Shown in pieces: positions 9,530 to 48,188 of a stretch of 64,000 nucleotides of DNA. Numbering within the stretch: the first letter of the stretch is position 1; the number at the start of each line of letters is the position of its first letter. The position numbers were made by a program, and so were the translations under genes. The notes under the pieces are model-generated. The model was not told the origin of the DNA, ran no database searches, and worked only from the letters and a program-made list of their open reading frames with translations. The stretch is from an uncultured virus (IMG/VR IMGVR_UViG_3300017917_005385) (lineage: Duplodnaviria; Heunggongvirae; Uroviricota; Caudoviricetes), in the IMG/VR virus record IMGVR_UViG_3300017917_005385; one strand, written 5' to 3'.

Positions 9530-9675
9530 TATTTGGTGAATTAAAAAAGACACCGTATATTTGTATAACAAAACAAGAAAATAAAAAAAATTCATATAAA
9601 ATTTGGTAAATTTAAAACTTTTTACTAATTTTGTATAAAATAAATCAAAAGAGACAAAAACTTTTTAATATATAA
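9530..9675 (+). promoter_or_regulatory. tandem Bacteroidota-type promoters plus AATATATA motif upstream of tRNA array 1
   Basis: TTTG...TATATTTG (9532-9563), TTTG...TAATTTTG (9602-9633), TTTTTAATATATA; near copies at 33084-33260 and 43808-43880. Confidence 0.75.
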
Positions 9676-9679
9676 ACAA

Positions 9680-9778
9680 ATGAGAACATTTAATACACAT
9701 AAACATTTTAGTAAATCGAATAAGTGGTTTAGCAACCAGTTCGGTACTGAAAGTGTATTGCTCTCAAATAAGATGTAA
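9680..9778 (+). CDS. leader peptide 1 (His/Phe/Lys/Trp): MRTFNTHKHFSKSNKWFSNQFGTESVLLSNKM
   Basis: Short ORF between promoter and terminator; H/F/K/W codons match the downstream tRNAs. Confidence 0.8.
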   Translation: MRTFNTHKHFSKSNKWFSNQFGTESVLLSNKM

Positions 9779-9805
9779 CAAATCTATTTATACAAGACAA
9801 TATTC

Positions 9806-9846
9806 AAAAGTCCGAACTTAACAAAAAGTTCGGACTTTTTTGTTTT
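9806..9846 (+). terminator. attenuator terminator 1
   Basis: AAAAGTCCGAACTT/AAGTTCGGACTTTT stem plus U tract; leader AGTTCGG (9738-9744) complements the 5' arm. Confidence 0.88.
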
Positions 9847-10348: not shown

Positions 10349-10436
10349 CAAAATGATTAAGATGATGAAAACTAAGTTGAAATATAAACGCTAGGCAACG
10401 ACCAAATGAATACGGGTCGTTGCCATTAAAAACAAT

Positions 10437-11639: not shown

Positions 11640-11717
11640 ATGAAAACAATTATGCTTACATCGAAGTCGTCAAGTAGTCGCTCGTCAAAAACGAGTGAGG
11701 TTCGATCGTATTCATAA
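11640..11717 (+). CDS. leader peptide 2 (Ser/Arg-CGN): MKTIMLTSKSSSSRSSKTSEVRSYS
   Basis: 10 of 25 codons are Ser; Arg codons CGC and CGA; followed by a terminator and Arg-ACG plus four Ser tRNAs. Confidence 0.85.
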   Translation: MKTIMLTSKSSSSRSSKTSEVRSYS

Positions 11718-11742
11718 TAGTCGTATAAATAAGATATTATGT

Positions 11743-11780
11743 AAACCCTTCGAACCAAAAGTTTGAAGGGTTTTTTGTTT
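11743..11780 (+). terminator. attenuator terminator 2
   Basis: AAACCCTTCGAAC/GTTTGAAGGGTTT plus U tract; leader GGTTCGA (11699-11705) complements TCGAACC. Confidence 0.88.
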
Positions 11781-24536: not shown

Positions 24537-24614
24537 ATGAACACTGTTATGAACATAGCGTATTATTATGAGGGGGAGCGTAGCTCAAACGTCAGACTAA
24601 TGTCTATGTCGTAA
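24537..24614 (+). CDS. leader peptide 3 (Tyr/Glu): MNTVMNIAYYYEGERSSNVRLMSMS
   Basis: TAT TAT TAT GAG GGG GAG; followed by a terminator and Glu/Tyr tRNAs. Confidence 0.85.
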   Translation: MNTVMNIAYYYEGERSSNVRLMSMS

Positions 24615-24636
24615 TGGTTTCATTATGATATTAACT

Positions 24637-24673
24637 AACCCAGTCTGACTTATCAGACTGGGTTTTTTGTTTT
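24637..24673 (+). terminator. attenuator terminator 3
   Basis: AACCCAGTCTGA/TCAGACTGGGTT plus U tract; leader GTCAGACT (24591-24598) complements AGTCTGAC. Confidence 0.9.
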
Positions 24674-25694: not shown

Positions 25695-25775
25695 ATGAAA
25701 AATTTAACTAACATATCAACAGCAATAATCGAAGGCGGCGCGGGAGCGAATGTCACTGGCTGGTTTATGTTATAA
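25695..25775 (+). CDS. leader peptide 4 (Ile-ATA/Gly/Ala): MKNLTNISTAIIEGGAGANVTGWFML
   Basis: GCA ATA ATC GAA GGC GGC GCG GGA GCG; followed by a terminator and Ile/Gly/Ala tRNAs. Confidence 0.85.
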   Translation: MKNLTNISTAIIEGGAGANVTGWFML

Positions 25776-25799
25776 TCTTTCATCAAAAGAAGTAAACGG

Positions 25800-25836
25800 A
25801 ACCCAGTCAGTGAAAATTGACTGGGTTTTTTTATTT
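25800..25836 (+). terminator. attenuator terminator 4
   Basis: AACCCAGTCAGT-gaaa-ATTGACTGGGTT plus U tract; leader CACTGGCTGG (25754-25763) pairs with CCAGTCAGTG. Confidence 0.9.
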
Positions 25837-27413: not shown

Positions 27414-28235
27414 ATGAAAACAAAAGACACCTTCGGGGATCGTATGAAAATGTACGAAAACCAAACCTGTGGAATTAGATTAATTCCCAGAATTCCAGTA
27501 ATTGCCCGTCTTGATGGTAAAGGATTCTCTAAATTTACTAAAGGTCTTAAAAGACCGTATGATGAAAGACTATCTAAATTGATGATTGAAACTACTAAGT
27601 ATTTAGTTAAAGAAACTAATGCAAACTGTGGCTATACTCAATCTGATGAAATCACTTTAATGTGGTACACTGATAAGATCGATGCTTCAATTTATTTTGA
27701 TGGTCGTTTATTTAAGATGCTTTCCGATCTTTCGGCTATGGCTTCTGTATTCTTTAATAGAAAACTTAGCGAATATCTTCCAGAAAAGGCTGATAAGATG
27801 CCTAGATTTGATGCTAGAGTTTACAACGTTCCAACTTTAGATGAGGCGATGAATTCATTCCTTTGGAGAGAACAAGATGCAACTAAGAACTCAATTACTA
27901 TGGCGGCTTCTCATTATTACTCTCACAAAGAGTTACACGGAAAGAATGGAAATGAAAAACAAGAAATGCTTTTTCAAAAAGGTGTTAATTGGAATGATTA
28001 CCCAACTTTCTTCAAGAGGGGTACTTATGTACAAAGAAAAAGAGTTTTAACTCCTTTCAGCGCTGAAGAGATTGAAAAACTACCAATTAAACACAATGCT
28101 AGAAAAGATCCTAGTATGTTAATTGAAAGATGGGTTATTGATGTGGTTGAATTACCTAAACTATCAAGTATTGAAAATTCTGTTGAAGTTATTGTTTTTG
28201 GTGAAGAACCTAAATTAAAAAGTCCAGTTATTTAA
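27414..28235 (+). CDS. Thg1-like protein (tRNA-His guanylyltransferase family, 3'-5' polymerase)
   Basis: RLDGKGFSKFT, YTQSDEI, FDAR, WREQDA.KNS. Confidence 0.92.
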   Translation: MKTKDTFGDRMKMYENQTCGIRLIPRIPVIARLDGKGFSKFTKGLKRPYDERLSKLMIETTKYLVKETNANCGYTQSDEITLMWYTDKIDASIYFDGRLFKMLSDLSAMASVFFNRKLSEYLPEKADKMPRFDARVYNVPTLDEAMNSFLWREQDATKNSITMAASHYYSHKELHGKNGNEKQEMLFQKGVNWNDYPTFFKRGTYVQRKRVLTPFSAEEIEKLPIKHNARKDPSMLIERWVIDVVELPKLSSIENSVEVIVFGEEPKLKSPVI

Positions 28236-29510: not shown

Positions 29511-29534
29511 TTATATTTGCTTAAAATAGTAAAT

Positions 29535-30155
29535 ATGATTAAAGTATTAGGTGAGATTCCAAAGTCAGAATTTGGCATTGCTTGTTCAGGTGGTGTTGAT
29601 TCTATGGCTATTCTTGACTTCTTAGTTAAGGGTAAATATAATCCACATGTTCTTTACTTTAATCACAACACCGAACACGGTCACGAAGCTGAAAAGTTTA
29701 TCACAGACTACTGCAATCAAAAAAGTCTTAAATTGACTATTGGTAGGACTGATTTAAAACCTGAGACTAATAAAGAAAAAATCTGGTCTGATTTAAGGTA
29801 TAATTTTTTTTCAAAGTTTGATTTTCCTATTATTACTTGTCACCATTTAGACGATTGTGTAGAAACTTATTTGTTTTCTTGTTTAAGGGGATTTCAATCA
29901 GTTATTCCTTATTCAAAAGGAAATGTTATTAGACCATTTTTATTAAATGAGAAATCTGAATTTGAAAAGTGGTGTAAACAAAAATCTGTACCTTTTATTC
30001 AAGACTATTCAAATGATTGTCTAGATTATTCAAGAAATAGAATTAGACATAAAATTGTACCAGAATCTTTACTTGTAAATCCAGGACTTAAAACTGTGGT
30101 TAGAAAAATGATTAAAATTCAAATTTATAATCAAGTTCAAAATTATTCTTATTAA
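29535..30155 (+). CDS. tilS: tRNA(Ile)-lysidine synthetase, short form (PP-loop domain only)
   Basis: SGGVDS, RY.FF, HHLDDCVET, IRPFL, D.SN....SRNRIRH. Confidence 0.88.
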   Translation: MIKVLGEIPKSEFGIACSGGVDSMAILDFLVKGKYNPHVLYFNHNTEHGHEAEKFITDYCNQKSLKLTIGRTDLKPETNKEKIWSDLRYNFFSKFDFPIITCHHLDDCVETYLFSCLRGFQSVIPYSKGNVIRPFLLNEKSEFEKWCKQKSVPFIQDYSNDCLDYSRNRIRHKIVPESLLVNPGLKTVVRKMIKIQIYNQVQNYSY

Positions 30156-33069: not shown

Positions 33070-33263
33070 AATATTTTAGAAAGTATTTGGTGAATTAAAA
33101 AACACACCGTATATTTGTAAAACAATTGAGAGAGGCAACGATTTAGATACAAATTTCAATTTTTTTTACAAATTTTAGAAAAAAATTAGGCAAACTTAAA
33201 ACTTTTATCTATATTTGTATAAAATAAGTCAAAAGGAACAAAAACTTTTTAATATATACAACA

Positions 33264-33374
33264 ATGAAAACAATGAATTTAAATATGAATCTTAATCTAA
33301 CAGTGGTGAATACGTTATGTATTAGACCAGTGGAGGGTTTTGCCATATCTAAAAATTTGTTTTCAGTCAACTAA
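33264..33374 (+). CDS. leader peptide 5: MKTMNLNMNLNLTVVNTLCIRPVEGFAISKNLFSVN
   Basis: Codons 3-21 use only T, M, N, L, V, C, I and R(AGA), the isotypes of the downstream array. Confidence 0.85.
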   Translation: MKTMNLNMNLNLTVVNTLCIRPVEGFAISKNLFSVN

Positions 33375-33402
33375 TGTAAGACAAATAAACTAAAGATAAG
33401 TG

Positions 33403-33434
33403 AAACCCTCAGACAAAAATCTGAGGGTTTTTTT
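33403..33434 (+). terminator. attenuator terminator 5
   Basis: AAACCCTCAGA/TCTGAGGGTTT plus U tract; leader GAGGGTTT (33333-33340) complements AAACCCTC. Confidence 0.9.
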
Positions 33435-36472: not shown

Positions 36473-37936
36473 ATGAAAAATATAGTAACAAGAATTGCAC
36501 CTTCTCCAACTGGACCGTTTGCACATATTGGTAATGTGAGAACTCTATTGTATAACTACTTTCTTGCTAAAAAGAATGGTGGTAAATTCTATGTTCGTTT
36601 GGAAGATACCGATCGTGATAGATATAATGCCTCGTTTTTAACATACTTTAAAGATATGTGTGATTGGCTTGGTATAGTACCTGATGGTTCTTATTGGAAC
36701 CCTGATCCATCTATTGGCTCATTCACTCAATCAACAAGAGATTATTCAGATAAGGTTAAATTCCTTTTAGATAAAGGTTTGGCTTACTATGCCTTTGATA
36801 CTAAGGATGATTTAGACGCACTAAAGGCTAAAGGTCTAAAGTATGACTCAACAACTCGCATGTCTATGAATAACTCATTGACTAATCCATCCACTGATAT
36901 TATGTTACAAAGTGGTGTTCCTTATGTAATTAGATTTGCTGTTCCAGCTGACTTAGATGTAACTTTCACTGATGCTATTTTAGGTGATATCACAATCAAC
37001 ACAAATACTTTAGATGATAAAGTTTTAATTAAGTCAAATGGAATTGGCTCATATCATCTTTGTAATGTTTGTGACGATCATGATATGGGTGTTACTCACG
37101 TTCTTAGAGGTAACGAGTGGGTAAACTCTACTCCTTTCCACGTTATTCTTTATAAGGCTTTTGGTTGGGATGTTCCTACATTTGCTCACTTACCTTTAAT
37201 TATGAATCCAGATGGTAAAGGTAAGTTGTCTAAGAGAACTGCTATGAAGTATGGTATTCCTATCGCACCACTTGGTTACACAGATGATAATGGTGTTTAT
37301 ACACCAGGTTGGAAAGACTTAGGATATGATCCTAAAGCATTTATGAACTATCTTGCTTTAATTGGTTGGAATCCAGGAGCTGAAGTAGAAATTATGTCTA
37401 TGGATGATATGATTAATTTATTCTCTTTAGATAGAGTTCACAAGTCTGGTGCTCGTTTCGATATGGATAAAGCTAAGTGGATGAACTCTCAATATCTTAA
37501 ATTAACAGATAACAAAGACTTGATGCCTTATGTTGATGTAGTTGACGATAGATATTCTGATGATAAATTAGACATGATTGTCTCTTTGGCTAAAGATAGA
37601 TCTGACTTTAAAACTGACTTGAATAAAATTGTTAAATTATTCTTTGATGTCCCTTCTATCGATGATAGAAGTAAATTAGATGATAACTATACAAAAGTTA
37701 TGTCAGACTTTATCAACAAAATTGATACAATTAACTTTGATGATACAAACTCAATCAAAGACACTATCTCATCAATCTGTAATGATTTAGGTGTTAAGAT
37801 GGGTAAAGTAATGCCTGGTTTAAGAATGGCTTTGGTATCCGGGATTGCTGGACCAGACTTAATGACAACAATGTCAATTCTAGGTAAAGACCAAACAAAA
37901 TTGAGAATTAATAACTCAATTACGGTAATGGCTTAA
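36473..37936 (+). CDS. gltX: glutamate--tRNA ligase
   Basis: RIAPSPTG, HIGN, RLEDTD, THVLRG.EW, KLSKR, anticodon-binding domain. Confidence 0.95.
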   Translation: MKNIVTRIAPSPTGPFAHIGNVRTLLYNYFLAKKNGGKFYVRLEDTDRDRYNASFLTYFKDMCDWLGIVPDGSYWNPDPSIGSFTQSTRDYSDKVKFLLDKGLAYYAFDTKDDLDALKAKGLKYDSTTRMSMNNSLTNPSTDIMLQSGVPYVIRFAVPADLDVTFTDAILGDITINTNTLDDKVLIKSNGIGSYHLCNVCDDHDMGVTHVLRGNEWVNSTPFHVILYKAFGWDVPTFAHLPLIMNPDGKGKLSKRTAMKYGIPIAPLGYTDDNGVYTPGWKDLGYDPKAFMNYLALIGWNPGAEVEIMSMDDMINLFSLDRVHKSGARFDMDKAKWMNSQYLKLTDNKDLMPYVDVVDDRYSDDKLDMIVSLAKDRSDFKTDLNKIVKLFFDVPSIDDRSKLDDNYTKVMSDFINKIDTINFDDTNSIKDTISSICNDLGVKMGKVMPGLRMALVSGIAGPDLMTTMSILGKDQTKLRINNSITVMA

Positions 37937-43372: not shown

Positions 43373-43750
43373 ATGAAATATTTAAAATCAATAAATGAAG
43401 AATTTGACAGAGTTGTTGGATTCAGATACTCAGATCCAAAAGAAGCATATAAGATTACGGCTTTATGTATGGGTGAAGATATAACTAATGATAAAGTAGA
43501 GAAGGCTTTAGGTAAAGTTAGTAATCTAAAATTCAAACCTGAAACTATTAATGTTAAAAATAGTGAAGAGGAAACATTAATTGAAACACCTAATGGTGTT
43601 GTTAGTATTGATGCTTTTGTTAACTTTGATATAGTAGTATATACAGATAGAGAGATAAGATCTATCATTGAAGAGTTAGGTGAAATACTATCTTCAGCAT
43701 TTGATATAGAAATATTAAACTTTAGAGTTAAAAAAGATTTTGGTATTTAA
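43373..43750 (+). CDS. hypothetical protein (MKYLKSINEEF N-terminus)
   Basis: AATATATA upstream. Confidence 0.65.
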   Translation: MKYLKSINEEFDRVVGFRYSDPKEAYKITALCMGEDITNDKVEKALGKVSNLKFKPETINVKNSEEETLIETPNGVVSIDAFVNFDIVVYTDREIRSIIEELGEILSSAFDIEILNFRVKKDFGI

Positions 43751-43885
43751 AATAATATTATTATCTTTGTACTCACAGAAGAAAAATAAATAAAAAATAA
43801 AAAAATATTTGACAAATTAAAACTTTGTTGTATATTTGTATAAAATAAGAACAAAAGGAACAAAAACTTTTTAATATATACTGAA

Positions 43886-43984
43886 ATGAAAAACTTAAAC
43901 TTAAATATTGTTAACCCGCAACCACAAGTTGTAATCGATCAGGATCCTGGTTCGAAAGGGGCTAACTATGTGGTTTTAAGTTAA
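43886..43984 (+). CDS. leader peptide 6 (Pro/Gln/Asp): MKNLNLNIVNPQPQVVIDQDPGSKGANYVVLS
   Basis: PQPQ...DQDP; followed by a terminator, Pro/Asp tRNAs and then the Gln tRNAs. Confidence 0.82.
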   Translation: MKNLNLNIVNPQPQVVIDQDPGSKGANYVVLS

Positions 43985-44005
43985 ACAAGATATTAACTAT
44001 GAAAC

Positions 44006-44045
44006 AAACCCAGTTAGTCGAAAGATTAACTGGGTTTTTTGTTTT
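44006..44045 (+). terminator. attenuator terminator 6
   Basis: AAACCCAGTTAGTC-gaaa-GATTAACTGGGTTT plus U tract; leader GGCTAACT (43960-43967) pairs with AGTTAGTC. Confidence 0.9.
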
Positions 44046-44052
44046 AACATAA

Positions 44053-44126
44053 CGGGAAGTGACTAAGGTTTTAAGCACGGGTGTTCTGGAGACATCAGTT
44101 AGTCGGTTCGATTCCGACCTTCCCGA
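44053..44126 (+). tRNA. tRNA-Pro(TGG), divergent
   Basis: cgggaag/cttcccg; ggtgt-tcTGGag-acatc. Confidence 0.7.
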
Positions 44127-44133
44127 CAAAAAT

Positions 44134-44205
44134 GGTCTAGTGGTGAAGTGGCTATCATATCTGCCTGTCACGCAGAAGTAGAGGGATCGAAACCCTTCTA
44201 GACCG
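44134..44205 (+). tRNA. tRNA-Asp(GTC)
   Basis: tctgc-ctGTCac-gcaga; G73. Confidence 0.88.
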
Positions 44206-44267
44206 CACGAAGTATAATTGGATAGAAACGTACTCTTTAGGGAATAGAGTAAAATAATTCTCAAAAT

Positions 44268-44340
44268 GGTCTCGTGGTTGAATGGTTACAATACCACCCT
44301 GTCACGGTGCGAGGTGCGGGTTCGAGTCCCGTCGAGACCG
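44268..44340 (+). tRNA. tRNA-Asp(GTC)
   Basis: cacc-ctGTCac-ggtg; G73. Confidence 0.88.
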
Positions 44341-44345
44341 CAAAA

Positions 44346-44435
44346 GGATTTATAGCTTAACTAGACGAAAATCGTCGCTGGTAGAGTAGCCCCGGTGCGT
44401 GGGGGAAGGTCTTGGTTCGAGTCCAGGTAGGTCCG
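44346..44435 (+). tRNA. atypical tRNA (G73, D-loop hairpin, irregular anticodon loop)
   Basis: ggattta/taggtcc; gacg-aaaat-cgtc insert; canonical T arm. Confidence 0.5.
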
Positions 44436-44440
44436 CAAAA

Positions 44441-44514
44441 GGTTCGTTAGTAGAGTTGGTTACAATATCGCACTGTCACTGCGAAGGTCACGGGTTCGAA
44501 TCCCGTACGAACCG
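44441..44514 (+). tRNA. tRNA-Asp(GTC)
   Basis: tcgca-ctGTCac-tgcga; G73. Confidence 0.9.
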
Positions 44515-44519
44515 CAAAA

Positions 44520-44591
44520 GGTCTTGTCGTCCAATGGTAGGATAGCCCGTTGTCTGCGGGATGGTTGCGGGTTCGAATCCCGTCAGGACCG
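44520..44591 (+). tRNA. tRNA-Asp(GTC)
   Basis: cccg-ttGTCtg-cggg; G73. Confidence 0.82.
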
Positions 44592-44600
44592 CTAAAATTA

Positions 44601-44677
44601 CGAGATGTTGGGGAGCCCGGTCACCCCGCCTGCTTTGGGAGCAGGAGAACTCGCAGGTTCGAATCCTGCCATCTCGA
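44601..44677 (+). tRNA. tRNA-Pro(TGG)
   Basis: cctgc-ttTGGga-gcagg. Confidence 0.9.
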
Positions 44678-44731
44678 CTACTCAAAGATAGGGAGTCCGA
44701 CATTTTTAATATATAAAATAAAAAATGTCGG

Positions 44732-45313
44732 ATGAACTTGAAAGAGGAAATTAAAAATTGTTATAGTGTATCAGATTTTTGTAGATTATTAAATTTATCA
44801 CAAGGTGGTGGTGGATTTTCTAAAGCGAAAAAAATAATACAAGATAACAATCTGGATATATCACATTTTGATAAGGGTTACTTGAAAAGACAAAAGAATC
44901 CTAAAATTGAAAAGGTTTGTCCAGTTTGTGATAAGAAATTTGAAACGGTTACTTGGAGCAATAGAAAAGAAAAAGTTACTTGTTCTAAGTCGTGTGCTAA
45001 CTCTTACTTTAGAAGTGGTGTTGATAACCCAAACTGGAAAGAAGAATCATACAGAACTACTTGTTTTTATTATCACAAAAAAGAATGTATAATATGTGGT
45101 GAGGAAAAAATTGTAGAGGTTCATCATATGGATGAAAATCATATGAATAATAAACCCGAAAATTTAGTACCTTTGTGTCCTACTCATCATCAATATTGGC
45201 ACTCAAGATATAAAGAGGAAATAGAAGATAAAATATATAACTACATAAAAGAATTTAAAATGAGAACAACAACACAATACCAGCAACAACAACAAATTAA
45301 TCCAACGGATTGA
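44732..45313 (+). CDS. HNH homing endonuclease whose C-terminus reads in frame through leader peptide 7
   Basis: CPVC, CSKSC, CIICG...VHH.D.N..NN..ENL..LCP.HH. Confidence 0.85.
   Translation: MNLKEEIKNCYSVSDFCRLLNLSQGGGGFSKAKKIIQDNNLDISHFDKGYLKRQKNPKIEKVCPVCDKKFETVTWSNRKEKVTCSKSCANSYFRSGVDNPNWKEESYRTTCFYYHKKECIICGEEKIVEVHHMDENHMNNKPENLVPLCPTHHQYWHSRYKEEIEDKIYNYIKEFKMRTTTQYQQQQQINPTD
45260..45313 (+). CDS. leader peptide 7 (Gln): MRTTTQYQQQQQINPTD
   Basis: Own ATG after AATATATA (45232-45239); 6 Gln codons; terminator, three tRNA-Gln and glnS downstream. Confidence 0.85.
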   Translation: MRTTTQYQQQQQINPTD

Positions 45314-45338
45314 TAACGGTATTGTATTGTCAAAATTC

Positions 45339-45375
45339 AAACCCGAATCAATTCAAATTGGTTCGGGTTTTTTTT
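45339..45375 (+). terminator. attenuator terminator 7
   Basis: AAACCCGAATCAAT/ATTGGTTCGGGTTT plus U tract; ATTGAT..CGG around the leader stop complements the 5' arm. Confidence 0.88.
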
Positions 45376-45377
45376 AT

Positions 45378-45448
45378 TGTCTTATAGTGTAACGGCAGCA
45401 CAAGAGATTTTGACTCTCTTAGTCTAGGTTCGAATCCTAGTGAGACAA
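45378..45448 (+). tRNA. tRNA-Gln(TTG)
   Basis: agaga-ttTTGac-tctct. Confidence 0.9.
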
Positions 45449-45454
45449 CAACAT

Positions 45455-45526
45455 TGCTCTATAGTATATGGGTTATCATATCTGTCTTTGAAACAGATGA
45501 ACTTGGTTCGAGTCCAAGTGGAGCAA
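45455..45526 (+). tRNA. tRNA-Gln(TTG)
   Basis: tctgt-ctTTGaa-acaga. Confidence 0.85.
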
Positions 45527-45533
45527 CAAACAA

Positions 45534-45604
45534 TGCCTCGTAGTGTAATGGCAACACAGAAGATTTTGACTCTTCTATTCTAGGTTCGAGTCCTAGCGAG
45601 GCAA
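45534..45604 (+). tRNA. tRNA-Gln(TTG)
   Basis: gaaga-ttTTGac-tcttc. Confidence 0.9.
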
Positions 45605-45633
45605 CTAAAAATAACATAAAAGATATAAATACT

Positions 45634-47238
45634 ATGAATTTCATTGAAGAAAAAATATTAGATAAAGGTAATCTTGATAAATTAACTTTAAGATTCCCAC
45701 CAGAGCCAAATGGTTATTTACATATTGGTCACGCTAAATCCATTATCTTAAATTTTGGATTGGCTGAAAAATATAATAGACCTTGTAACTTGAGATTTGA
45801 TGATACAAATCCAACTACTGAAGATACACATTTTGTTGAATCTATAATAAAAGATATAGAATGGTTAGGCTACAAGCCTGCTAATATTTTCTATACATCT
45901 GATTACTTTGAATTTATTTACAAATGTGCTGTTACTTTAATTAAGAAAGGTCTAGCTTATGTTGATGATTCAACATCTGAAGAAATTGCTAACTTAAAAG
46001 GAACACCCACAGTTGCTGGTAAAGATTCACCATACAAGTCAAGAACTATTGAAGAAAACTTAGATCTATTTAATAGAATGAGATTAGGTGAATTTGTTGA
46101 AGGTTCTAAAATTCTTAGAGCTAACATTGATATGGCTTCTCCTAATATGATTTTAAGAGATCCTGTTATTTATAGAATAATATCTAAGTCACATCATAGA
46201 ACTGGTGATACTTGGAAGATTTATCCAATGTATGATTTTGCTCATCCTTTAAGTGATTATAACGAAGGTATTACTGATTCTTTATGTACTTTAGAATTTG
46301 AAGTTCATAGACCTTTATATATGTGGGTCTTAGAAAATTGTGATTTAGAAAATCCTTTACCAGAAGAAACTGAGTTTGCTCGTTTGAACATTGACTATAC
46401 AGTTATGTCAAAGAGAAAGTTAAAGAGATTAGTTGAAGAATCTTATGTTGATGGTTGGGATGATCCAAGAATGCCTACTATCTCTGGATTAAGAAGAAGA
46501 GGTTATACACCAAGTGCTATTAAAGATTTTTGTGATAGAATTTCTGTTACTAGAAAAGATGGTGTTGTTTCTTATTCTTTACTTGAAGAATGTCTAAGAA
46601 CCGAATTGAATAAGACTGCTCCAAGATTAATGGGTGTCATGGATCCTGTTAAGTTAGTTGTTACTAATTTTGAAGGTGAAGGATATTGTGAAATTGACAA
46701 TAATCCAGAAGATGAAAATGCTGGTAAAAGAAAAGTTTCTTATTGTAATGAATTTTGGATTGAAAAAGAAGATTTCAGAGAAGAAGCCAATAACAAATAT
46801 CACAGATTAAAGTTAGGTGGTGAAGTTAGATTAAAAGGATTGTTTATAGTTAAAGCCAATGAAATAATTAAAGATGAAAACGGTGAAATTATAGAAATCA
46901 GATGTACTTATGACCACGATGCTTGGATTGGTGTTACTGAAAAGAGGGTTAAAGGTACTATTCACTGGGTTTCTGTTAACCACGGAGTTAAGATGAAAGT
47001 AAACGATTATGATAGATTATTTATCAATAGTTCACCAGACAAAGGAGATGAAGATTTTACAACTCATGTCAATCCTAACTCATTAGTTATTAATGATAAT
47101 GCTATCTTTGAGGAAAATGTAAAAGATTGTAAAGTAGGTGTGCCTGTTCAAATGATGAGAAAAGGTTACTATGTTTTAGATAAAGATGGTAAGTCTTGGA
47201 ACAGAACTGTAAGTTTGAAAGAAGGATGGGTAGGTTAA
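45634..47238 (+). CDS. glnS: glutamine--tRNA ligase
   Basis: RFPPEPNGYLHIGHAK, IYPMYDFAH, SLCTLEF, MSKRKL, GWDDPRMPT, KGTIHWVS. Confidence 0.96.
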   Translation: MNFIEEKILDKGNLDKLTLRFPPEPNGYLHIGHAKSIILNFGLAEKYNRPCNLRFDDTNPTTEDTHFVESIIKDIEWLGYKPANIFYTSDYFEFIYKCAVTLIKKGLAYVDDSTSEEIANLKGTPTVAGKDSPYKSRTIEENLDLFNRMRLGEFVEGSKILRANIDMASPNMILRDPVIYRIISKSHHRTGDTWKIYPMYDFAHPLSDYNEGITDSLCTLEFEVHRPLYMWVLENCDLENPLPEETEFARLNIDYTVMSKRKLKRLVEESYVDGWDDPRMPTISGLRRRGYTPSAIKDFCDRISVTRKDGVVSYSLLEECLRTELNKTAPRLMGVMDPVKLVVTNFEGEGYCEIDNNPEDENAGKRKVSYCNEFWIEKEDFREEANNKYHRLKLGGEVRLKGLFIVKANEIIKDENGEIIEIRCTYDHDAWIGVTEKRVKGTIHWVSVNHGVKMKVNDYDRLFINSSPDKGDEDFTTHVNPNSLVINDNAIFEENVKDCKVGVPVQMMRKGYYVLDKDGKSWNRTVSLKEGWVG

Positions 47239-47630
47239 ATAGCCTCCCATCTTCCATCTGATAGAAATCTATAAGAACCTATAAATTCAAATTTATTCCA
47301 TTGATCTGGTGATATTAAAGAAATTAACTCTTCGCCAGATTCTTTTTTATATAAATGATAAGTTTCACCGGATATTGGTTCAAAATTATGACTTGCATTA
47401 TAGAGTCTTTCATTCATTTTAATTTCAGACATTAACTTTTCATACTCTTTAGTCATTTCTTCAAATTTTGAAGAATAGTATTTTTTTATTTTAGAAGTTT
47501 TTTCCTTCTTAAAAAGACTAATGTTATCGGGTTCAAATTTTGGCGCGCCTACTTCCGTTGGATAGGCTTTAATCATCCTATTTTCAACAAAACTGTCAGG
47601 CATTTTCTTTTTCTCCATACACTTATACAT
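47235..47630 (-). CDS. DUF2452-like protein
   Basis: YPTEVGAPKF...FEPISGETYHLY...LISP..W. Confidence 0.65.
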   Translation of the reverse strand: MYKCMEKKKMPDSFVENRMIKAYPTEVGAPKFEPDNISLFKKEKTSKIKKYYSSKFEEMTKEYEKLMSEIKMNERLYNASHNFEPISGETYHLYKKESGEELISLISPDQWNKFEFIGSYRFLSDGRWEAI

Positions 47631-47732
47631 ATAAGTAATAATATTGTTTATAAAATGATATCATGATGTTTCATGAATTAAATTTTATTATATTGAATTT
47701 TTTTTACTATATTTGTATAATATATAATTGAC

Positions 47733-48188
47733 ATGCTCTGCGTATATAAATTTAACTTTACTAAGTCTCCATTTGACTTAAATGATGACTATGACAGACT
47801 ATCTGACATAGACAAGGAGAAGATTGCAGATATGGAAGCAGAATCATTTATAGATTATGAAGAAGATAATAACTATTCATTTTTTATTATTGCTGAACCA
47901 ACAGAAATTAAAAAATACACAAATGTTTTAGATGAGAATCTAATTAGTTATCGAATGAAAGATGTATCAAGTGAAATACTAAATGGTACTTTTAAAGTAG
48001 AGGACTATATATCAGATAAAAGTATTATTTCTTTTAATTCATTAAAATATTCATTTTTTATTGATGATTTAAATGAATGGATATACAACAATTTAGATAT
48101 TGATACTATATTAGATAGGATATCTTCAGTTGGAATGAAATCTCTAACAAATATTGAAAAAGAATTTCTTAAAAATTATAATTTATGA
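47733..48188 (+). CDS. hypothetical protein
   Basis: C-terminal DIDTILDRISSVGMKSLT..EKEFL motif. Confidence 0.65.
   Translation: MLCVYKFNFTKSPFDLNDDYDRLSDIDKEKIADMEAESFIDYEEDNNYSFFIIAEPTEIKKYTNVLDENLISYRMKDVSSEILNGTFKVEDYISDKSIISFNSLKYSFFIDDLNEWIYNNLDIDTILDRISSVGMKSLTNIEKEFLKNYNL

Follow-up and report, generated by a model that had tools for sequence, protein, structure and literature searches.

The subject of this analysis is a short regulatory element in a 64,000-nucleotide (nt) stretch of DNA, here called the window, from an uncultured virus of the class Caudoviricetes (IMG/VR record IMGVR_UViG_3300017917_005385). The element, referred to as the Gln module, comprises a small leader frame with a run of Gln codons, an intrinsic terminator, three tRNA-Gln genes, and glnS, which encodes the glutamine--tRNA ligase (GlnRS). 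It can be interpreted, with good confidence, as a ribosome-mediated leader-peptide attenuator that senses the speed of Gln decoding and gates the three tRNA-Gln genes and glnS as one unit. Judging by the sequence, the phage would probably make tRNA-Gln and GlnRS mainly when ribosomes lack charged Gln-tRNA. Such induction of both the tRNAs and their synthetase by a shortage of Gln-tRNA had been proposed in an initial annotation of the window, and the comparative and structural evidence supports this proposal.

The Gln module and its predicted antiterminator

All components of the Gln module are found on the plus strand, at the positions and in the order (poly-Gln leader, terminator, three tRNA-Gln genes, glnS) described in the initial annotation. 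The leader frame (45260..45313) starts with an ATG at 45260 and consists of 17 codons followed by a stop codon at 45311-45313. Six of these codons specify Gln (five CAA and one CAG, located at 45275-45277 and 45281-45295). The view of the leader as an open reading frame (ORF) of its own stands only in part: the 17-codon Gln frame exists, but in the window it represents the tail of a 193-amino-acid (aa) ORF that contains an HNH domain.

Right behind the last Gln codon, the transcript has a predicted local hairpin of -4.8 kcal/mol (hairpin 1:2, 45296..45314), with strand 1 at 45296-45303 and strand 2, which includes the stop codon, at 45307-45314. The 5' strand of the predicted antiterminator (45306..45320) has as its partner the 5' arm of the intrinsic terminator (45339..45375), a stem-loop followed by eight T residues (45368-45375). 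The core stem of the terminator contains 11 pairs (45342-45367) and reaches 14 pairs (45339-45370) with an A-U extension.

The first tRNA gene begins 10 nt past the core stem. The three tRNA-Gln(UUG) genes (45378..45605) occupy positions 45378-45449, 45455-45527, and 45534-45605 and score 52 to 66 bits on RF00005. They are followed by a full-length glnS gene (45634..47238), separated from the last tRNA by 29 nt, the originally reported distance, when the Rfam end is used and by 28 nt when the ARAGORN end is used. The glnS product scores 669.2 bits on the equivalog TIGR00440 (cut-off, 425.8) and matches the Pfam domains tRNA-synt_1c, tRNA-synt_1c_C, and tRNA-synt_1c_C2, which cover the class I catalytic and anticodon-binding parts.

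The 124-nt leader region has a predicted fold of -32.6 kcal/mol, compared with -15.1 +/- 3.1 kcal/mol for its shuffles (z = -5.6); all energies given here are nearest-neighbour predictions, and the ribosome masks described below use approximate footprint sizes. The antiterminator pairing drawn in the initial annotation (ATTGAT-aa-CGG with CCG-a-ATCAAT) is borne out, with a duplex of -11.5 kcal/mol versus -4.5 +/- 1.9 kcal/mol for 500 shuffles, none of which is as good. Its designation as the weakest antiterminator of the set requires a correction: among the seven modules of the window, it belongs to the three weakest (-11.3, -11.5, and -11.5 kcal/mol) without being singly the weakest, and the others range from -12.3 to -19.6 kcal/mol.

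Conservation of the leader in phage glnS loci

The comparison covered 29 phage glnS loci, namely, the window, loci L001 and L002, and 26 IMG/VR loci encoding relatives of GlnRS. These loci are partly related: the window, L003, L004, L006, and L018 are close relatives, and there are approximately nine lineages. In 15 of the 29 loci, tRNA-Gln genes are found just 5' of glnS; L005, one of the 15, is truncated by the end of its contig. Of the 14 loci that could be tested, 13 have a poly-Gln mini-ORF and a terminator ahead of the tRNA-Gln cluster. The conserved leaders start with ATG and contain a run of 4 to 7 Gln codons, followed by a terminator with a stem of 9 to 11 base pairs and at least six T residues.

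A poly-Gln leader is absent from 13 of the 14 phage glnS loci that lack an adjacent tRNA-Gln. The exception is L026, where a leader and terminator within the size ranges just given are located 5' of an ORF encoding a HAD domain, which overlaps glnS by 4 nt, and no tRNA genes are present. Across these 14 loci (the 13 tRNA-linked ones and L026), the ATG-started leaders are 15 to 26 codons long, and most of them are not fused to a long upstream ORF (10 of 13 tRNA-linked loci, or 11 of 14 counting L026). Apart from the Gln run and a few C-terminal codons, the peptides are divergent; CAA and CAG interchange, and translation from the ATG would in every leader yield Gln for the repeat. The tRNA-Gln cluster of L027 is split by a GIY-YIG gene, with the leader 5' of the first tRNA pair.

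The poly-Gln pattern exceeds chance. A search of 236,481 nt in six frames yields 23 open frames in which Gln occupies at least 4 of 5 residues; this leader, at the same relative position, accounts for 14 of the 23. Among 80 bacterial glnS loci, 75 were tested, with the exclusion of five that had under 200 nt of upstream sequence; a single one of the 75 has a Gln-rich frame within 600 nt 5' of glnS, and no T-run follows it. Inheritance of the leader from bacterial glnS is ruled out, as the combination of leader and T-run is found in none of these 75 loci. The first tRNA begins 8 to 12 nt past the terminator stem in 11 of the 13 tRNA-linked loci and 19 and 64 nt past it in the remaining two. In those 11 loci, therefore, there is no space for an intervening promoter, and the tRNAs would be transcribed only through the terminator.

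The potential for alternative pairing is conserved along with the leader. In all 14 loci, a strand that overlaps the 3' end of the leader or its stop codon pairs with the 5' arm of the terminator. In the 13 tRNA-linked loci, the best duplex between the region after the Gln codons and this arm has a predicted energy of -9.6 to -15.6 kcal/mol, and 11 of them beat mononucleotide shuffles of the upstream region at p <= 0.024; the antiterminator of L026 has -16.6 kcal/mol (p = 0.004). The 5' strand of the antiterminator starts 9 to 13 nt past the last Gln codon of the run in all loci, and the stop codon lies within it in 9 of the 13 loci and also in L026. In L010 and L027, both strands have unrelated sequences and the pairing is nevertheless retained: their own pairs have -13.7 and -10.6 kcal/mol, respectively, whereas foreign partners placed on the same terminator arms give -3.2 to -10.2 kcal/mol. 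Twelve loci could be aligned by MAFFT for column-wise covariation, L001 being out of register. In this alignment, pairing is seen in 94% of the cells of the 7-pair core and in 87.5% of those of all 10 named pairs, compared with 16 to 51% for a slid partner, and two pairs have changed on both sides.

The predicted outcome depends on the position of the ribosome. In folds of the free RNA, the terminator is formed in all 13 loci, and a local hairpin sequesters the antiterminator strand with -3.6 to -9.3 kcal/mol in 12 of them and with -1.8 kcal/mol in L025. If the last Gln codon is masked by a ribosome before the 3' arm of the terminator has been synthesized, the 5' arm engages upstream partners, with 7 to 11 of its 9 to 11 nt paired in all 13 loci (9 of 11 nt in the window). 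A ribosome on the stop codon leaves the complete terminator, again in 13 of 13 loci. As modelled, the Gln module has the classical 1:2, 2:3, 3:4 arrangement of alternative pairings. A second conserved stretch, located past the stop codon, pairs with the leader start or the Gln run in the free folds, and a ribosome on the Gln run is predicted to free this stretch as well.

From these features we infer that the leader is translated and that ribosomes stalled on it cause read-through of the terminator. RNA polymerase would arrive from upstream, in the window probably from the promoter of the preceding leader module (module 6) through the Asp and Pro tRNA genes and the inserted HNH gene. A ribosome would then translate the Gln run, having either initiated at the leader ATG or come in frame from the HNH ORF. 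With ample Gln-tRNA, it would reach the stop codon and mask the antiterminator strand, the terminator would form, and transcription would end at the T-run before the first tRNA. With charged tRNA-Gln scarce, the ribosome would stall on the last Gln codons, covering the strand right after them and leaving the strand with the stop codon free; the latter would capture the emerging 5' arm of the terminator, allowing read-through into the three tRNA-Gln genes and glnS. In the absence of a ribosome, hairpin 1:2 would hold the antiterminator strand and the terminator would form. The expected outcome is a negative feedback on the supply of Gln-tRNA.

Competing readings and the endonuclease insertion

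Several observations weigh against an attenuator that controls the whole unit. The antiterminator of the window is weaker than the core stem of its terminator (-14.4 kcal/mol), and the shuffle tests of the antiterminator are marginal in L018 (p = 0.05) and L007 (p = 0.10). CAA repeats are low-complexity sequence. Column-wise covariation does not go beyond that of shuffles, 69 of 500 reaching the same score and 21 of 500 the same number of both-side changes. This weakness is due to the conservation of the paired motifs, and the case therefore rests on the energies of individual loci and on the two sequence-unrelated variants, L010 and L027. Locus L023 has tRNA-Gln and glnS, yet it has no leader and carries a GIY-YIG endonuclease gene directly upstream. 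The leader of the window is fused to the HNH ORF and does not form a separate ORF. It also lacks, at a distance of 43 to 55 nt, the TAnnTTTG motif seen there in five of the six other leader modules of the window; we take this motif to be a mark of Bacteroidota promoters. Co-regulation of glnS is weakened by L008 and L010, where 756 and 510 nt with ORFs separate it from the tRNAs. Finally, the GluRS-like gene of the window stands alone, with a promoter-like motif and without a leader.

The last two points are most relevant to the reading in which the attenuator gates tRNA-Gln only and glnS has a separate transcription start, located in the last tRNA or beyond it, and is independent of Gln-tRNA shortage. 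This possibility appears rather unlikely, although it fares better than the others. The GluRS-like gene (36473-37936, with tRNA-synt_1c and Anticodon_2 domains) has TAAATTTG located 12 nt 5' of its ATG, lacks both a leader ORF and a neighbouring tRNA-Glu gene, and could serve as a precedent for a separately transcribed glnS, as could the ORFs that intervene in L008 and L010. In addition, the promoter motifs searched for may not be those used by the phage or its host. However, the gap between tRNA-Gln and glnS is just 14 to 33 nt in 12 of the 15 loci. Searches for terminators and for TAnnTTTG, which bear out the original claim that neither a promoter nor a terminator separates the tRNAs from glnS, detect no terminator-like site in this interval and no TAnnTTTG within 120 nt 5' of glnS. 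Furthermore, the leader of L026 precedes a tRNA-free operon that ends in glnS. Because of the short gap, its lack of such motifs, and the arrangement in L026, we infer that glnS is co-regulated with the tRNAs and has no transcription start of its own. The presence of leaders before all synthetase genes of this phage, for its part, is ruled out by the GluRS-like gene at 36473.

As for the origin of the transcript, entry into the Gln module probably occurs from the promoter of module 6, near 43810-43840, because no TAnnTTTG is found at the usual distance before the Gln leader. Module 6 (43886..44034, plus strand) consists of a leader ORF with Pro, Gln, and Asp codons (43886-43984) and a terminator (44009-44034). 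It has TATATTTG located 55 nt 5' of the leader ATG, as well as a sigma-70-like site (43809-43836) that matches 11 of 12 positions.

The element might also act as untranslated RNA, with its CAA repeats or hairpins bound by a protein or, in a T-box-like manner, by tRNA-Gln, and with a reading frame that is incidental. CAA is indeed complementary to the UUG anticodon, the conserved motif past the stop codon pairs with the region of the Gln run in free folds, and the conserved end of the peptide coincides with hairpin 1:2, so that a constraint on the RNA accounts for it. This option is nevertheless improbable. Each of the 14 leaders opens with an ATG that sets the Gln frame of the repeat, not its Asn or Thr frame, and closes with an in-frame stop codon; this stop codon is located exactly 5 codons past the run in 10 of the 14, and CAA interchanges with CAG. 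In an Rfam scan of positions 43700-45700, tRNA alone reaches the gathering score, and the leader matches have 20 to 21 bits versus gathering scores of 39 to 97. Neither the T-box (RF00230) nor any other Rfam family matches the element at E <= 1. Given the conserved frame and the lack of an Rfam match, a T-box or other direct tRNA sensing is rejected as the main mechanism.

The attenuator reading also has to accommodate the continuity of the leader with the HNH ORF. The 17 codons of the leader are the final 17 codons of the 193-aa ORF at 44732-45313, which matches HNH_2 with 21 bits (cut-off, 21) and shares 43% identity (E = 2e-35) with a protein of Xanthomonas phage XbC2 annotated as an HNH endonuclease. 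Homologues found in Xanthomonas, Serratia, and Erwinia jumbo phages show 43 to 44% identity, with E values down to 2e-35. Their alignments cover only residues 20-176, ending at the residue that immediately precedes the leader Met, and the annotated homologue genes finish 18 to 21 nt (5 to 6 codons) past the aligned part. The window and its close relative L003 match through tRNA-Pro(UGG), located at 44601..44678 on the plus strand in the window, where it is the last gene 5' of the inserted endonuclease and aligns with the L003 tRNA-Pro up to its 3' end. The match resumes at the leader ATG, and the 31-nt spacer between tRNA-Pro and leader in L003 corresponds to approximately 580 nt with the HNH gene in the window. 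No HNH gene is found at the corresponding site in L001 to L004 and L006. Because the homologues end before the leader and the L003 spacer is replaced, the HNH ORF body (44732..45259, plus strand) is a homing-endonuclease insertion that has no stop codon of its own, continues in frame into the leader, and uses the stop codon of the latter; its nuclease activity is a prediction.

This HNH family occurs directly after tRNA-Pro(TGG) in the Xanthomonas (XbC2) and Serratia (BF) phage genes that were inspected (L029, 326-886, and L030, 287-883), just as it does in the window at 44732-45259. At the DNA level, positions 45038-45190 of the window are 77% identical to Serratia and Erwinia jumbo phages. 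The family thus looks like a recently mobile element that homes next to tRNA-Pro in phages of very different hosts. A different type of endonuclease is found at two other loci, L025 (1259-2188) and L028 (1257-2183), where the poly-Gln leader forms the in-frame continuation of an ORF for a DUF559-type endonuclease. The N-terminal 107 residues of these proteins are 37% identical to the window HNH protein, and the nuclease domain differs. Fusion to the HNH ORF need not disable the sensor, as a ribosome completing the HNH ORF would translate the very Gln codons of the leader and end at its stop codon. That two endonuclease types are fused in frame, and do not overlap the leader out of frame, is a pattern of two or three events and is consistent with selection preserving the sensor.

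The least probable alternative, an unregulated partial terminator that ends the upstream unit (HNH or the Asp and Pro tRNAs) or fixes the ratio of tRNAs, with poly-Gln as a chance end of the HNH protein, would fit the continuous frame in the window and the endonuclease ORFs of L025 and L028 that also end in the Gln run, but is very difficult to reconcile with the leaders of 11 of the 14 loci, which are not fused to a long ORF, with HNH homologues that align at residues 20-176 only and end 5 to 6 codons later, with the Gln run and antiterminator geometry kept across divergent loci, and with the linkage of the Gln run to tRNA-Gln or glnS in all 14.

Other leader modules and related regulatory systems

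The window has a G+C content of approximately 30% and contains 47 tRNA genes. It encodes several tRNA-related enzymes: a Thg1-like guanylyltransferase, a PP-loop ATPase, the GluRS-like protein, and GlnRS. The genes for the Thg1-like tRNA-His guanylyltransferase and the PP-loop ATPase (27414-28235 and 29517-30155) are located between tRNA clusters. The closest public records, LR756502.1 (642 kb) and LR745206.1 (635 kb), are two unannotated genomes of uncultured phages that show 74 to 77% identity to positions 44000-48000 of the window across about half of that region. The nearest bacterial relatives of GlnRS are 48 to 57% identical to it and come chiefly from Bacteroidota. The window is probably a piece of a huge phage genome, and these relatives point to a Bacteroidota host.

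Six further modules of the window, located at 9680-9835, 11640-11770, 24537-24662, 25695-25825, 33264-33427, and 43886-44034, consist of a leader ORF, a terminator, and a strand complementary to the terminator 5' arm (-11.3 to -19.6 kcal/mol), all ahead of tRNA clusters. In a descriptive comparison, each of these six leaders contains codons for several amino acids of the downstream tRNAs; for example, a Tyr/Glu-rich stretch precedes Glu and Tyr tRNAs, and a Gly/Ala-rich stretch precedes Gly and Ala tRNAs. A more tentative idea, possible but considerably less probable than the attenuator as such, is that huge phages run a codon-resolved translation homeostat, in which each tRNA family, and here also a synthetase, stands behind its own stall sensor. 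In this scheme, the poly-Gln gate would act as an inducible counter-measure and not simply tune the supply, and the endonuclease fusions would reflect selection to keep the sensor. Under such a homeostat, tRNA-Gln and GlnRS would be turned on only if the host Gln-tRNA fails, either because the codon demand of the phage exceeds the supply or because the host tRNA is depleted by defence nucleases or by phage-induced shut-off.

Several other features of these regions deserve mention. A 13-codon Lys/Met-rich mini-ORF with a G+C-rich hairpin that lacks a T-run (10353-10436) is found between the Trp tRNAs and four Lys tRNAs and may represent an internal Lys gate of a different kind. Positions 44053-44126 are recognized as a tRNA by Rfam (29.8 bits; gathering score, 29) and are not called by ARAGORN. 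In five modules, the distance from the terminator to the first ARAGORN tRNA is approximately 75 to 120 nt, and further unusual tRNAs may be hidden in these intervals. ARAGORN also calls tRNAs with 4-nt or 2-nt anticodons in L002, L003, and L027. Just before its Gln leader, L007 (473-1996) contains two tRNA-Pro genes, then a small ORF, and then a gene for a class II synthetase-like protein (tRNA-synt_2b and HGTP_anticodon), which may be a second pairing of tRNAs with a synthetase. An A/T motif ending in TATATA is found at a constant spacing of 5 to 6 nt 5' of many leader ATGs (9660-9680, 33245-33264, and 43866-43886 in the window, approximately 1990-2008 in L007, and approximately 1447-1465 in L008). 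It could be a promoter element of leaderless mRNAs or a translation initiation signal.

If the attenuator reading is correct, large phages would not simply possess extra tRNAs but would meter them, each codon family separately, according to how ribosomes behave in the infected cell. A 120-nt element would then allow a direct test of why phages encode tRNAs and synthetases, whether for codon usage or to compensate for tRNA depletion, and would itself be a compact natural sensor of Gln-tRNA. Leader-peptide attenuation is textbook knowledge for amino acid synthesis genes and for pheST; here it apparently applies to adaptor RNAs and their charging enzyme, in a virus.

The synthetase operon pheST of Escherichia coli is controlled by an attenuator with the leader peptide pheM. 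Like the Gln module, it combines a short leader rich in cognate codons with a choice between terminator and antiterminator and tunes a synthetase operon to charged tRNA. In contrast to the Gln module, which belongs to a phage and places the cognate tRNAs first, it senses Phe, operates in a bacterium, and regulates a unit free of tRNA genes. The trp, his, leu, thr, and pheA leaders share with the Gln module the 1:2, 2:3, and 3:4 pairings, regulatory codons before strand 1, a terminator with a U-tract, and a stop codon placed so that the finishing ribosome masks strand 2. However, they regulate enzymes that make amino acids, whereas the Gln module would regulate an adaptor RNA and its charging enzyme. 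Attenuation at pheL is among the mechanisms treated in PMC3082878. The T-box, like the proposed Gln module, induces synthetase genes by antitermination upon a shortage of charged tRNA, but it binds uncharged tRNA directly and does so without translation, whereas the Gln module has a conserved frame that is apparently translated.

The combination of tRNA and protein genes has its own precedent in the mixed operon thrU-tyrU-glyT-thrT-tufB of E. coli. There, too, tRNA genes and a gene for a protein of the translation apparatus share one transcript and are separated by tRNA processing, but the protein is not the cognate partner of those tRNAs. To our knowledge, no leader-peptide attenuator has been described for that operon. 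Among Rfam families, Bacteroid-trp (RF01692) presumably represents a Trp leader. It appears among the cis-regulatory candidates of Bacteroidetes in PMC2864571. The predictions in PMC2659441 include a "tRNA synthetase leader" before the glnS gene of Shewanella, for which Cheung et al. 1985 are cited. In full-text searches of the openly accessible literature, no paper was found that describes tRNA genes controlled by a leader peptide or a glnS gene preceded by a poly-Gln leader. Features particular to the Gln module are that its sensor is specific for a single amino acid, that its unit includes the cognate synthetase, that a tRNA-free variant exists in L026, and that endonucleases are fused to it.

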